Positions 1 to 6,000 of a DNA stretch of 27,218 bases are shown here, in pieces. The first letter of the stretch is position 1; every line of letters begins with the position of its first letter. The DNA is taken from assembly GCA_049860595.1 (NCBI GenBank), contig CP187552.1; one strand, written 5' to 3'. Position numbers: made by a program. Source of the stretch: Methanocaldococcus sp. 16A (GTDB lineage: Archaea > AGJL01 > Methanococci > Methanococcales > Methanocaldococcaceae).

Positions 1-3000
1 CTTCTCACTTTGTGGTATGCTATCATCTTCATTTAACTTTTTTACAATTTCGTTAAGAGTCATTTTTTTTTCTTTACTCAAATAATCAAGTATTTTAAAC
101 GTCAAGTTTATCGCCATGTTTTCACCTCCCTTGTTGTCCTCGTTCTATAATATAGAACTACTACTATATATACTTTTCGGTTATCGAATAATTACAATTT
201 ATCAATATAGAGCAGGAAAAAATAATTCACTTCACATTTCTAAACCTCCACATTAATACATTATCAATATTAGAACTGCCAAATTTATCAAATTCTAGGT
301 CGAATAAAGTTACGAATCTCGTTTTATCCCAACCTAAAATAGGACAATACTTATCGTAATAACTCAGATACGGCAAGTTGTTGCTCACAATATAAGCCCA
401 AACATCCTTCCAGCTCCAATCTCTAAGAGGATAAACATTAGTTATTTTTTTGTATTTATCATACTCGTAAATTTCCTGTGTTCTCAATCTTCTTTTTACT
501 GCCTCTTCTGCTCTAAGCCCAACAAACGCTAAATCATATCCTTCTTTTACCAATTGTGGAACTAACTTTCCAAGATAATCCACACCTAACACATTAACAG
601 CATTCCTTTTCAATATCCAATACTTTTTTGATGTTTCAACTCTCAAATTCTTTGCCCTACATTTTTTAGCAATCTCTATTATCTCTTTTTCCAAAGGTCG
701 TGGCAGATAATAAGGACCATAATCCCAATGTAGGACCATAATAGAATCATCAAATGATAATACTAAATGCATCAATGCTGTAGAATCCTTACCTCCTGAA
801 AAAGCAATATACGGTTTTTTAAACTTCGATAGAGCTTCTTTAATAATCTCTTTTGTCTTTTTCAGCTTTTCTTGAAAAACTTCACTCTCGGCCCATATTA
901 AAAAATACTCTCTCCATTTTTCATCCATAACTTATCCCTCTAATGCAACTTTAGCTCCTGGTGGAACACATGGAGCAACATTTCTTTTAGCCCAATATGG
1001 AATTTTATAAGCCAATAATGCAATATCTTCAGCTTCCTTGCAAGCTTTTATTGGTATTGGTCTCATTGCTTTTCCATCCTTGACAAGAGAATAATCTTCA
1101 TCAGCCTCATCAATTGAGAATTCTTTTATGAAGCCGTAGCCAATAGCTGTTTTCTTCCCAAGCCCTGGAAGCCCTTTTAAAAGCTCTTCAAGTTCTTCTT
1201 TATCCCCACACACATAGAATGTTACAGTTTTTGCTGGAATGTAGATATGATTAATCATGAAATCTCTAAAAAATCCACTACCCCTCTGTATCTGCTTAAC
1301 TCTCATTTTTTCATATCTCAAATACTTCTCTGTGAATCGCTTGTAGATTGTAGCAGAATAGTAATCTGAAACATCAAAAATAGACACTGATGCGTGATAA
1401 ACAAAATCACATCCAAATTTAAACCTCTTTAAAGGTAAATCTATTTTTCCAATGTCATATATTGGATTGCACGACGGCAATGCTCTATAATCTGGATAAT
1501 CTCTCCTCAACTTCAAATGAGCAATTAAGCTATCGAAATTAATCCACGGATGCCCTAAACATATCGGTGTTATCATCCTAAAAACTATTTTAAGTGGCTG
1601 AAAAGCCATTAAACCACCTCTTGCAGTTCATCTAAAATAGCAACAATCTCATCTTTATTCTTCTGCAAGAAATTGAGATATTCTTCACTCGTCTTATCAA
1701 ACTTGTATCTTATCTCTACTTCTCCAAATCCAATACTTGATTTTGCTCCAATAAATGGCTTCATTTTCCACAGTTCTAAAATTCTTGCCATTGCTGATAA
1801 TTCAATAGGTTCTGGGTCCTCAAGCCTAAACTCATGATAGAATACAGTCCCAGCTACAAAGGCTTCATAATCAATAATCATCTGCACTGCTTGCTCTCCC
1901 CTCTCCCTCTCCATCCTCAACTCATCTTTCCTCGTCTGGAATGGAGTATCAATCAGCTCATAAAAACTAACATTCGGATTATACCACTCTGGAAGCTCAA
2001 TATCCTCTGGAATATATGTTCCTTTCAATTCTCTACAGATAGGCAACAGCATCATTGGCTTTAATTTGCTCTCAATCATTTGATTTCCAAATGAAAATCC
2101 AAAAATCGTAGCTGGAATTAAGTATTTAACAACTTTCTTTTTGAAATTAATGTCAATGACTCCGCTCTTGCTACTGTCTAATGATTCCAATAGCCCTCCT
2201 GAAAATAGAGCATGATGTAGCCTAACTCCTCCTTTTTTAGAATAGTCAATTTCATACCCAATTTGATTTAAGAAATCTTTCATAAACAATCTTCTTAAAT
2301 AGCCCCTTACAGCATTTCCAGAGATAATTGGAACATCTACAGGTTTTCCATTCACAATAAACTTTCTCCTATTCAACATTATTGTAGAACCAGTTTTCTC
2401 ATTGCCTCCATGCATAATTGGAGTTTTAGCAATGACTATCCCTTGAATTCTTTCCAATCCAAAAGCCATTATTGACCACCTCCAATAAAGTCGGTTAATT
2501 TAGCAGTTTTGTTTTTAGGAGAATTTGACTTCAATAAACCAGCATTTTGAGCAGCTTTCAAAATTATAAGTTTAGGCATCTCTCTTAACACATCTAAAGC
2601 TTCTTCTTCATGCTCTCTCAAAAACTCAATATCCTCAAGTGGGAGTTCTGGAGCTTGTAAAGAAAGATGATTTGCAAACTTTTGAATAACTCTTGGAACA
2701 GAACATTCATGCTTTGAAAACTCTAATCTGTGTTCCATCCAATCCAACGCCTCTTTCTTACCCCTCGACTTAATCACACTCCCGAGAGAACCCTTCCTCC
2801 CAGCATCAACAATGCAAGCTGCTACTACATTAACCCACGCTTCTTCAAGCATTTTCCTCAATTCCTTATTTGACTGCATAAACCACAACCTCCCAAAGAG
2901 GATTTTTTCTAAATCTCTCAATTTGTTTGCATAAGTCATCATAAATCCAGTTGTGAGTTTTAGGACCTTCAAGTAGTTCAGTTTTGGAGAATTTTAATTT

Positions 3001-6000
3001 TCTTGCCTTTCTTGCTACATCAACCATTTCTCTTAGAACATCCTGCTCTACAAAAATCAAGCTATCTTCAAAAGCAGTGAAATACTGTTTTTTTGAATAT
3101 GCAACCCTATTAATCAATTTTAAAAATCCCTGCTTTTTCCCTGATTTTGTGAGATATATTGCAAAAGGAGGCTGTGGCGGATTCATTAGGGTGTCCAAAA
3201 TCTCGTCCTTCTGTAAAAATCTAACCCCTTCCTTATTAGCTACCCACGACTTTCTTCTATACTGTTGCTCTCTGACAAGTGTATAGCAATATTCACAAAT
3301 TACATTCCCTTCTTGTAACTCATTCCACGCTGTGAAGTTCCCTGAAAAATCTATTTTATGCCCTTTCTCGGTTTCAAATCCACATACTACACAAGTCCCT
3401 TTCTTATCTCCGTGTGTTGGAGAAAATAGTTCTGACACTCTTAGCACTTCCATGCTATCCCTCAATCCAAATGTATGAACCCACACCTATATAAACTTAA
3501 CCATTATATTAACATACATAAAACTACAATATAGACATGGTAAAATCAGACCTCTACGAGGATTGAAATTTATACTAACAAACATACGGCTAAAAATAGC
3601 CCACACAAAAAAAGAATCATTGCTACGGTCCTATAAAAATTAGTTAATTAGAATTAATAAAAACAAAATAAAAATATGTCATCTCATATTGGGGAAAAAG
3701 GAAACATTTTTAAATTAAAAGAGAAGGTTTAAAAATTCTCCATCTTTCATTGAGGTCACCTCTCCAGCGTGCTATTTTATTTGGAGATATCAGGTGTTTC
3801 TTCTAAGATTTCTTTTAATAATTAATGCCTATTTTTTGAAGAACCAGCCCTGCCCCACAATTACGACATTTAAAATAAATATGGTCGGTTCTATCTACAG
3901 ATACCTCAGGTTGATATGTCCTCTGAAGTATAATATTGTAAATATCATCATCTATGAATGTAATAATATCCTTGAATACTTCTTTATATCTACCAAACAT
4001 TCTTTGCACCTCCCCCAATGTCTTTTATCACTCTAAAAATTAATAATTACATAATCCCCCAATATCCTGATTTTGGACTGTATATATCTCCAGCCTTTTT
4101 TAAATATTCTAAAGCATTTTCAACATCTTTTTCGGATAAACCAATACTCTTAGCTTTCTCATATATCTCTTCTTCTGGTGCTAACCCATCATTCCTTAAT
4201 TCAGCAATCTCTCTAATAATATTTAGGACAGCATCCATCTTATCTCTTCTTGATTTTGGAGTTCCAGCTATTTTATCAATATCAATATTTCCTGTTTCTG
4301 GGTCATAAGCAATTTCTTTTAAGCAGTAATCTACTAAATCAATAGCTTCTTTTGCATCTTCCTCATCAACAATATCCTTTAACTTTGCCTTTGCAATAGC
4401 CTCTGAAAGTCTTAAAAGAGCTTCTAATTGTCTTGCAGTTATAGATATGGTGTTACTATTATTTCTCATCTCCTCATAATAATTTGAAATTAATTCAATA
4501 GCCTCATCACTAATAACAGGCTTTTTTTGTCGTGCATATAAAATATACTTAATAATAAATTCATCATCAATCTCTATACCATCTAACACCAACTTATTTT
4601 CTTCCCCTAAAACTTTCTTTTTCTTTTGCATAAGTATATGTTTAGCAATTTCTTTATCCTTTCCTTTTTCAGGTATATCCATTAATGGAAAGATTAAATC
4701 AAATCTACTTAACAATGGAGCAGGTATGTCTATCTGCTCTATGACGGTTAAATTCCTATCAAACCTTCCTCTCTTTGGATTACATGCTGCAAGTATTGCA
4801 GTTTCAGCTTTCAATTTTGCACTAATCCCCCCCTTATTAACATGAATAGTCTGTTGCTCCATAGCTTCAAGAATATCGCTTAAAGAATCTTTTTTAACAC
4901 TAATCTCATCAATACATGCAGTTCCCCCATTTGCTCTAACAAGAACTCCTGGCTTTATGACCCATGACTCACTCCCTAAAGCTACTTTTTCCCTAACAAC
5001 AGCAGTAGTTAAACCAACTCCTGTCGTTGAAGTCATTGAAGTATATTCGTTCCCTGGAATTTGAGCAACTTTCCTCATCATCACAGTTTTCCCAACTCCA
5101 GGGTCTGTAATTAATAGAATGTGTATATTATGTCTTTCTCCTTCTGCAGGAACTCCTTTTATTTGTTGCAAGAAAATTGCCTTTTTAACCATATCATGCC
5201 CTTTTATCCTATCAAAAAACTTATTTGATAATACATCAATTACATCCTTCCTCTTTGCTAATTTCTCAATTTTTTCAATATCTTCTGGTGTTAAGTCAAT
5301 ATGTGTATCATTATCAATAACTTCTATGTGTGTGGCTTTTACATATATGTTAAATCCTAAACTATTCTTTTTCATCCTTACATTGAAAGGAATACCAACT
5401 ACTCTAACTCTCCCAGCATATATTCCTGGTGTATTTTCATAAATTACTGTAATATATCTTGGAGGCTCTTCTGGTTTCTCCATTAAATCAAGAGGTTGTT
5501 GAAGTTTAAATTCTTGAACATCTATAAATTCACTTTCATCTTCTAACAGCATACATTCATTTTCACAACATTTTGGAGCTGAAAAAGGTTCAAATATATT
5601 ATTATATTCTTTTATTATTTTACTTCCACATTTTGGACATATAAATACTCCTTTCTTCAGCATTGAAATTATCTTAGTTGCTACGGTAATTACCCCCTCA
5701 AATTCCACTAACTTCCCAACAATCTTTGATTTTATATCTTCAATTGTAAAAGGTCTTTCTCCAAATGGTGTTTCTATAACCTTATAAGGTTTTGGTAAGT
5801 TTTTAAATGTCAAAACTCTAAGGTCTTTTGGATTCTCATTATTAAGCTTATAAAATGCCTCTTCATAACATTCTTTAAAGAATTTCAGAGCTTCTTCTGG
5901 ATGGTTGATAATCCATTCTATAAAATCTAAGTCTAAACCAATAACAACACAATACTCATACAAATTAGCTAAGTCAATCTCAACTCTTTCAACATCTTTT

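Follow-up and report, generated by a model that had tools for sequence, protein, structure and literature searches.

A type IV-B CRISPR–Cas cassette on a fusellovirus-like episome extensively recorded in the CRISPR arrays of its Methanocaldococcus host

Type IV-B is the least understood subtype of the CRISPR–Cas systems, being without an array or a nuclease and without any biological role demonstrated so far. What such a cassette might do for the element that carries it is the question raised by contig C2 (CP187552.1) of Methanocaldococcus sp. 16A, on which a preliminary description had placed an intact IV-B operon. Here we analysed the entire contig (the window; 27,218 bp, 32% G+C), which is accompanied in the three-contig genome by a 1.58-Mb chromosome (C1; 30% G+C) and a 13.1-kb contig (C3; 13,123 bp). 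C2 is apparently a circle, the single support for this being an intact 71-aa open reading frame (ORF) that runs over the contig ends.

A five-gene type IV-B operon

Five consecutive minus-strand ORFs, abutting or overlapping one another, run from 3486 down to 227, and the stretch 227–3453 is almost certainly an intact, array-less type IV-B cassette with the gene order csf1–cas11–csf2–csf3–cysH-like:

2866–3453, minus strand: csf1, Cas8-like large subunit with a four-Cys zinc finger (longest ORF 2866–3486, GTG at 3486; PADLOC Csf1_0_IV, 8e-43)
2469–2972, minus strand: cas11-like small subunit, overlapping the 3′ end of csf1 (PADLOC Cas11_0_IV, 1.1e-10)
1609–2469, minus strand: csf2, type IV Cas7 backbone subunit (PADLOC Csf2_0_IV, 5.4e-66)
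932–1609, minus strand: csf3, type IV Cas5 (PADLOC Csf3_0_IV, 1.5e-56)
227–928, minus strand: cysH-like gene (CasCysH, PP-loop ATP pyrophosphatase fold; Pfam PAPS_reduct PF01507, 1.1e-19, above cut-off)

The tight coupling of the five genes asserted in the preliminary description was upheld by these matches and by the abutting ORFs: one base is common to cas11 and csf2, as it is to csf2 and csf3, and the gap between csf3 and cysH is 3 nt. The likely start of csf1 is the ATG at 3453, which is also the end coordinate of the feature described earlier and which has a TTTATATA box before it (by eye); depending on the start, the Csf1 product is 195–206 aa long. The start of cas11 is ambiguous (TTG at 2972, or ATG at 2942, 2939 or 2879), because the likeness to the Thermococcus homologue discussed below sets in as early as residue 4 when the longest form is taken.

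Hidden Markov model (HMM) typing, which the preliminary description had proposed as a check, returned PADLOC type IV matches for all four of Csf1, Csf2, Csf3 and Cas11. The type IV equivalogs were likewise the best NCBIfam matches of Csf1 (TIGR03114, 4.6e-15; 55.9 bits, under the 140-bit cut-off), Csf2 (TIGR03115, 1.1e-9) and Csf3 (TIGR03116, 1.9e-24), with all three scores under the curated cut-offs; the cassette therefore represents a divergent branch and is no textbook copy. In the PDB, Csf3 matched Csf3 7xfz_B (0.0014), and the Cas11-like protein had no match in Pfam, NCBIfam or PDB.

Type IV-B is defined in PMC8175902 by csf1–3 together with cas11-like and cysH-like genes and by the lack of an array and of an enzyme that processes CRISPR RNA (crRNA), and the CasCysH of IV-B is described there as having no catalytic cysteine. 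On C2, csf1, csf2 and csf3 lie in one operon, the cas11-like gene stands between csf1 and csf2, as its homologue does in Thermococcus nautili, and the cysH-like gene encodes a nucleotide-binding loop without a conserved catalytic Cys. The SGGKDS motif of the CysH-like protein (residues 44–49) is conserved across 63 aligned homologues, in which no Cys column is conserved and both Cys of the window protein occur at 3%. In Csf1, the zinc-finger residues C32/C35/C64/C67 (numbering of the 206-aa form) are kept in 98–100% of 62 aligned homologues. Together, the predicted gene content and these signature residues confirm the IV-B layout that had been proposed. A predicted-complex run with Csf1 and the CysH-like protein scored 0.01, which gives no verdict and weighs neither way.

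Whole-genome searches for Cas1 (PF01867) and Cas6 (TIGR01877) yielded matches on the chromosome alone and none on C2, which also had no cas3_core match and no CRISPR array, there being two solitary repeats only. The earlier claim that the circle has no cas1, cas6 or array thus stands; cas2 and dinG, which it also listed as absent, did not surface on C2, no family-specific search having been made for either. Of the 26 window ORFs scanned with Pfam, the four largest included, MCM alone is a helicase. Cas10 families had no match anywhere in the genome, and thus a IV-C-type large subunit was not found.

Against the PDB, the Csf2 family profile ranked archaeal IV-C Cas7c (5.3e-30) above the actinobacterial IV-B Csf2 (7jhy; 2.7e-17), with IV-A Csf2 (5.1e-8) and Csm3 (6.2e-5) following. 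A survey of viruses for csf2, also suggested by the preliminary description, returned 147 IMG/VR contigs that encode Csf2 relatives in a family-alignment scan, and we read the gene content of 80 kept loci from these contigs and of 23 genome loci. CysH adjoined the Csf2 relatives of this family-alignment search in 71 of the 80 IMG/VR loci and in 19 of the 23 genome loci, the usual gene order being csf1–(cas11)–csf2–csf3–cysH; csf1, csf2, csf3 and cysH occurred together in 55 of the 80, and cas11 was recognizable in 8 of those 55. The relatives of C2 Csf2 being mostly CysH-linked, there is therefore no sign that its proteins cluster with another repeat-associated mysterious protein (RAMP) subtype, an outcome that had been allowed for at the outset.

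Single-protein Csf2 scans of viral and genome contigs found no close relative, whereas the alignment-based scans did find relatives, and members of the family also turned up on short contigs from a very wide range of archaea and bacteria. Within the lineage, neither protein nor profile searches revealed a Csf2 relative in any of the 39 other genomes from the order or phylum group, which leaves the Csf2 of C2 as the sole type IV Cas7 among the 40 lineage genomes examined.

Host spacers record the episome

The chromosome holds seven CRISPR arrays comprising 256 repeats and 249 spacers:

C1 46777–51184, 325743–327590, 520759–522167, 540894–543426, 683710–686770, 996109–999286 and 1216214–1216781: host CRISPR arrays

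The spacers match C2 in 128 of the 249 cases, 114 perfectly and 14 with 1–5 mismatches, and none of the 249 matches C3 or the chromosome outside the arrays; the other 121 match nothing in the genome. In every one of the seven arrays the C2-matching spacers form long, leader-proximal runs, those with mismatches tending to sit deeper, and the 0–3 leader-nearest spacers per array have no genome match. They correspond to 121 unique protospacers, which lie on both strands and around the whole circle. Upstream of the protospacers, C occupies position −3 in 118 and position −2 in 122 of the 128 cases (5′-CCN motif), and CC is present beside 101 of the 114 perfect protospacers. All seven arrays use closely related 30-nt repeats. 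Spacers are duplicated within some of them, one spacer occurring four times in array A5 and a two-spacer unit twice in array A1.

The sole host cas locus adjoins array A5 and contains full-length cas6, cas8b, cas7, cas5, cas3 (791 aa), cas4 and cas1; a Cas2-like 87-aa ORF was read by eye, not by HMM. No type III genes, Cas10 or other RAMP were found in the host genome. As judged from its genes, the host carries a single type I-B system, which is complete. Spacers were acquired from C2 more than 100 times in sequence, yet the replicon persists with unmutated protospacers, and these facts imply that host interference did not clear it. The interplay with the host CRISPR system that the preliminary description had surmised is thereby much strengthened, and the IV-B operon may be the cause of the survival of the element. 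For related elements in three other genomes, which show no csf genes in the stretches examined, no self-targeting spacers were found for the 13–20 kb searched of each, and the 16 congeners showed no spacer-like match to C2 among the matches listed.

The host spacers also bear on whether the cassette might be a horizontally acquired passenger, silent or non-functional here, or possibly an artefact of misassembly. Such an origin would fit its uniqueness in the lineage (0 of 39 other genomes), the related elements without csf genes in the stretches examined, and the 48-nt direct repeats that flank a 4.85-kb arc containing it. We regard it as very improbable. The five ORFs are full-length, their stops and starts overlap or abut, conserved motifs are intact, the G+C of the operon resembles that of the remainder of C2, and an intact ORF spans the contig ends. 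In addition, the operon holds 13 unique protospacers, or 4.0 per kb versus 4.5 per kb elsewhere on C2; because the host spacers sample it at the element-wide density, the operon is physically part of the targeted replicon.

The untargeted C3 and the 121 spacers without a genome match, which are presumably aimed at other elements, would suit a further possibility, namely that the IV-B complex borrows host crRNAs against competing mobile elements and not against the host system. It would then bind or silence rivals already recorded in the host arrays, and the resident episome would profit. Inter-element conflict has been proposed for plasmid type IV systems (bioRxiv 10.1101/780106; PMC13676074). 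The idea nevertheless seems improbable to us: the same crRNAs would already let the host I-B system attack such rivals, the complex would be led to the episome itself by half of the crRNAs at its disposal, and the cassette has neither nuclease nor helicase.

A possible capture of host crRNAs

How, then, might the episome persist? We tentatively suggest, as the leading possibility although it falls somewhat short of being probable, that the IV-B module captures host crRNAs as a counter-defence and so lets the episome persist. Because the cassette has no Cas6, array or nuclease, the Csf complex would have to assemble on RNA made elsewhere. A complex of Csf1, Cas11, Csf2 and Csf3 could load host crRNAs cut by the host Cas6, which would be the likeliest source, the transcript of the adjacent solitary repeat being a further possible one. 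Either crRNAs or, by way of the solitary repeats, Cas6 and Cascade subunits would then be drawn away from the host I-B effector, and a starved effector would mean blunted interference and an episome that persists despite 128 matching spacers. The CysH-like enzyme, with its PP-loop intact and no catalytic Cys, may add an ATP-dependent adenylyl-transfer or signalling step. The analogy on which we draw is that of the array-less IV-C complexes of Thermococcales, which are described as using host arrays (PMC13676074). The more specific proposal that IV-B, perhaps together with both solitary repeats, is an anti-CRISPR device that disarms I-B interference while adaptation continues appears doubtful at present.

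Several points weigh against crRNA capture. No observation connects the survival of the episome with the IV-B genes in particular, and the solitary repeats, a 206-aa acidic protein and small ORFs of the same arc are equally placed candidates. The sole solved IV-B complex, which was heterologously expressed, is described as having bound heterogeneous non-CRISPR RNA (PMC7937560; PMC8175902). A search with the Rfam CRISPR-DR families found no solitary repeat beside csf1 in the four nearest IV-B loci, those of T. nautili and of three IMG/VR contigs. Sub-populations could have been merged in the assembly, that is, immune cells without the element and carriers without the spacers. Acquisition from C2 may also have stopped for reasons unrelated to IV-B, because the 0–3 leader-nearest spacers per array do not match C2. 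Finally, the combination of a IV-B cassette, self-targeting and retention is that of one genome, seen in its genes alone.

Solitary repeats and the accessory arc

The features that might contribute to tolerance alongside, or instead of, the IV-B genes are the two solitary repeat units (SRUs) and the direct repeats D2 and D4:

3539–3569, plus strand: SRU(i), solitary CRISPR repeat of 31 nt, divergent from csf1 and 53–83 nt upstream of the csf1 ORF
26386–26415, minus strand: SRU(ii), host-type solitary CRISPR repeat between two same-strand minus genes
3614–3661: D4 direct repeat (48 nt, 96%), copy upstream of the csf operon
25936–25983: D4 direct repeat, copy upstream of two small minus-strand ORFs
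122–182: D2 direct repeat (61 nt, 85%), copy directly upstream of the 71-aa junction ORF
27057–27117: D2 direct repeat, copy directly upstream of the 206-aa gene

SRU(i) differs by 2–3 mismatches from the array repeat of 9 of the 16 congeneric genomes (a reversed control gave 0 matches) and matches Rfam CRISPR-DR39 over its full length with 36.8 bits (E 0.022), under the gathering score of 39; its family is not used by this host. SRU(ii) departs from the host consensus by 6 mismatches and is identical to the terminal repeat of array A4 over 23 contiguous nucleotides. Each is the single match in C2, where shuffles give 0.02 for SRU(i) and 0.05 for SRU(ii), and a 4-bp stem is kept in both (by eye). 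The earlier mention of host-type repeats is therefore right for SRU(ii) and wrong for SRU(i), which is of the repeat family of the nine congeners. In sequence terms, C2 presents what is expected of an RNA anti-CRISPR, in that a mobile element carries a lone repeat resembling the CRISPR repeat of the host.

The two D4 copies bracket the 4.85-kb arc, which contains the IV-B operon, both SRUs and the 71-aa, 206-aa and 107-aa ORFs; the product of the 71-aa junction ORF is winged-helix-like. Host spacer A5_9 matches 3604–3642, over the first D4 copy. D2 and D4 may be common regulatory regions of an accessory, leftward-transcribed and possibly counter-defence, arc, and D4 could be either a shared regulatory region or the scar of a module insertion. 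As a tRNA attachment site D4 is unsupported, the window having no tRNA and the chromosomal D4 copy being a spacer only. Directly upstream of SRU(ii), at 26430–27050 (minus strand), lies the gene of the 206-aa acidic protein (isoelectric point (pI) 4.3; 51 Asp+Glu residues), for which no family was found (Pfam MIT_C at 0.012 only) and an Atlas search was uninformative. Speculatively, it might be a DNA mimic or an anti-defence protein.

These features lend themselves to an account, the main rival of crRNA capture, in which the IV-B cassette is real but tolerance is due to SRU decoys, a protein anti-CRISPR, high copy number or a mixed culture, and in which IV-B itself performs RNA-guided or unguided regulation or CysH-based maintenance of the element. 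SRU(ii) is host-type, and the intergenic gap in which it sits, on the strand of its flanking genes, looks transcribed, SRU(i) fits the congeners' repeat family, and both have the stem; the arc encodes, besides the acidic protein, 64-, 80- and 107-aa proteins of no known kind, and the duplicated upstream regions D2 and D4 suggest co-regulation. The binding of non-CRISPR RNAs by the heterologously expressed IV-B complex (PMC7937560) points the same way. We nonetheless hold this account to be rather unlikely. The C2 proteins include no match to a known anti-CRISPR, although no search was aimed at anti-CRISPR (Acr) families, which is a weak point; the sequence downstream of either SRU has no seed with a protospacer adjacent motif in the host cas locus; and IV-B, at 3.2 kb of 27 kb, is the largest investment of the arc, intact and with conserved catalytic motifs, which argues for an active role.

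Two further roles for the solitary repeats were considered. That RNA from downstream of a solitary repeat, as a crRNA-like regulator, guides a complex to the host cas promoter was rejected for now, as the target search was empty: downstream of the SRUs there was no seed of at least 9 nt with CC in C1 672–684 kb, and no full match genome-wide. That a solitary repeat beside csf1 is a conserved feature of IV-B was unsupported by the nearest loci. Among the 80 IMG/VR loci, one had an array nearby and one a possible repeat pair upstream of csf1.

A fusellovirus-like backbone

The remainder of C2 resembles, in part, the genomes of Sulfolobus spindle-shaped virus 1 (SSV1), Thermococcus prieurii virus 1 (TPV1) and Pyrococcus abyssi virus 1 (PAV1):

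12931–13146, plus strand: SSV1 VP2-like DNA-binding protein (BLASTP against SSV1 VP2, E 4e-16, 53% identity over 43 aa)
15656–17005, plus strand: AAA+ ATPase related to SSV1 B251 (BLASTP E 3e-7; phrog_5484 'DnaA-like replication initiation protein', 3.7e-13)
4047–6299, minus strand: MCM replicative helicase (Pfam MCM, 1.3e-71; 55% and 48% identical to two chromosomal paralogues)
12430–12795: 121-aa two-helix membrane protein beside the VP2 gene, VP1 candidate by position only

C2 thus has the fusellovirus genes for VP2, a B251-like DnaA-like ATPase and an integrase, the last in the form of two tyrosine-recombinase ORFs (Pfam Phage_integrase, 2.8e-12 and 4e-9; phrog_9208, 5e-32). The 183-aa recombinase (24358–24909, plus strand) covers just positions 73–239 of the 241-position phrog_9208 (5e-32), and its N-terminal part therefore seems to be missing. 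The 272-aa recombinase (14857–15675) is conserved within the structural-looking module of related elements.

The preliminary description had spoken of a virus encoding VP1 and VP2. The VP2 half was borne out, with the B251-like ATPase beside it, but VP1 was not: no significant VP1 or major-capsid match was found on C2 with Pfam, PHROGs, hhalign, Atlas or BFVD. A VP1 precursor is expected to have an N-terminal helix and two hydrophobic helices, and the model of the 121-aa protein has an N-terminal helix and two hydrophobic helices. The protein had no Pfam or PHROGs match, reached E 0.051 and 1% probability against SSV1 VP1 (hhalign) and showed no similarity to PAV1 ORF121. Its AlphaFold model, of low confidence (predicted local distance difference test 63.8), gave 0 BFVD matches at E ≤ 0.001, and its nearest named Atlas clusters, His1_capsid and VP1_VP3, scored 0.84, under the Atlas bar of 0.9. 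A 114-aa protein reached E 0.18 against SSV1 VP3. Because VP2 and B251 match and the VP1 tests were not significant, we use 'fusellovirus-like' rather than 'spindle-shaped virus', and with fair confidence we take C2, from its predicted genes, to be a fusellovirus-like episome.

Other backbone genes encode a 3′–5′ exonuclease, an 878-aa DUF2341 protein, an 843-aa protein, a transglutaminase-like protein and a 303-aa membrane protein with weak likeness to PAV1 ORF293 (7e-4) and to a TPV1 membrane protein (0.015). Imperfect tandem repeats at 22455–22718 (plus strand), within the 843-aa ORF, encode an Asn/Pro/Tyr-rich stretch. A histone-fold protein (8091–8372, plus strand; Pfam CBFD_NFYB_HMF, 8e-13) shares 35–38% identity with two histones of the chromosome. 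Directly upstream of the candidate structural genes, C2 encodes a membrane protein like the A24 (prepilin/preflagellin) peptidases (11210–11644, plus strand; Pfam 2e-8), whose chromosomal counterpart is 37% identical and which is odd cargo for a small episome.

The structural-looking module at 12032–23024 is syntenic with an element in the genome G032, and with those in G010 and G003 the synteny is partial; all three are the related elements in which the stretches examined had no csf genes. Searches with the DUF2341 protein, the ATPase and the 121-aa protein (tblastn) against phage and plasmid collections returned nothing useful. For the pT26-2 plasmid family of Thermococcales and Methanococcales, seven common core genes are described (PMC6972569). 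The ATPase and the DUF2341 protein had no match in the plasmid collection, which was not confirmed to contain a member of that family.

Comparison with known systems

The closest annotated cassette, with five genes of the same order and sizes, is on a plasmid of T. nautili strain 33-3 (NZ_OX281346.1), the identities being 61% for Csf1, 49% for Cas11 (residues 4–165), 54% for Csf2, 49% for Csf3 and 43% for CysH. That plasmid is 103 kb long and has no other genes in common with C2, and no CRISPR-DR match was found near its cassette, whereas C2 has SRU(i) beside csf1. In its record the Csf3 homologue (69119–69862) is labelled 'CRISPR-associated endoribonuclease Cas6', and Csf1 and Cas11 are labelled hypothetical; because of these labels the cassette is not recognized there as type IV-B.

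The IV-B systems of actinobacterial plasmids (Rhodococcus jostii RHA1; Mycobacterium sp. JS623, PDB 7jhy) have the same five-gene set and, like C2 and in keeping with the definition given in PMC8175902, lie on a mobile replicon without an array, cas6, adaptation genes or a nuclease. Their Csf2 is only about 27% identical to that of C2, and unlike them C2 resides in an archaeal host with a type I-B system and carries two solitary repeats. The 'Fuxiviridae', a family of tailed viruses infecting Bathyarchaeia that was described in 2023 on the basis of metagenomes, encode csf1–3, cas11 and a cysH-like gene; the cas7 of the virus is matched by a host spacer, and a role in counter-defence has been put forward (PMC10541130). 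As described there, these viruses are head-tailed and metagenomic and have a two-repeat mini-array (PMC10541130), whereas C2 is a fusellovirus-like episome of a complete genome, with a single repeat by csf1 and 128 host spacers. The repeat pair found in one IMG/VR locus (L078, 5844–5934), which consists of two 20-nt direct repeats separated by 71 nt and lying roughly 100 nt upstream of csf1, may be a mini-array like that of Fuxivirus.

The nearest solved Cas7 to the C2 Csf2 is that of type IV-C1 of Thermococcus onnurineus and Pyrococcus abyssi, a system described as array-less and as loading crRNAs from the other arrays of the host (PMC13676074). It differs in having a Cas10-like HD large subunit, in being chromosomal and in defending its host (PMC13676074); C2 has the 195–206-aa zinc-finger Csf1 as large subunit and a CysH-like gene. 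Solitary repeat units of phages and plasmids can serve as RNA anti-CRISPRs (Racrs; PMC10651486). Racrs and the C2 repeats are alike in being single CRISPR repeats on a mobile element that mimic host repeats, although Racrs are not known for archaeal I-B, and one C2 repeat fits the arrays of congeners and not those of this host.

With SSV1, TPV1 and PAV1, C2 shares a VP2 homologue, a B251-like ATPase, the 303-aa membrane protein, a large DUF2341 protein and tyrosine recombinases, and with TPV1 an MCM; it differs from them in having no significant VP1 or major-capsid match and in being known from its genes alone. No csf or cysH relatives were found in SSV1, TPV1 or PAV1 (tblastn, E ≤ 0.05), save for a chance-level 33-aa match of Csf1 in TPV1 (E 0.04).

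Implications

Type IV-B is classical on plasmids, and its carriage by mobile elements and by a tailed virus of archaea has been published before; the C2 cassette joins a known group. The unusual part is the documented stand-off with host arrays in a complete, apparently cultured genome; our literature searches found no description of this element or of its stand-off. Because the nearest annotated relative sits on a Thermococcus plasmid and the cassette is unique in its lineage, the predicted relationships point to counter-defence modules having been exchanged between mobile elements of different archaeal orders.

C2 persists although the apparently intact I-B system of its host recorded it more than 100 times, which makes it a natural test case for IV-B, and in this pairing it becomes directly testable whether host CRISPR is hijacked or blocked by IV-B. 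An anti-CRISPR device, if real, would explain a stable stand-off in which 128 spacers are stored and the episome is still carried. It would also make this the first natural system to tie orphan IV-B to the suppression of host CRISPR immunity.

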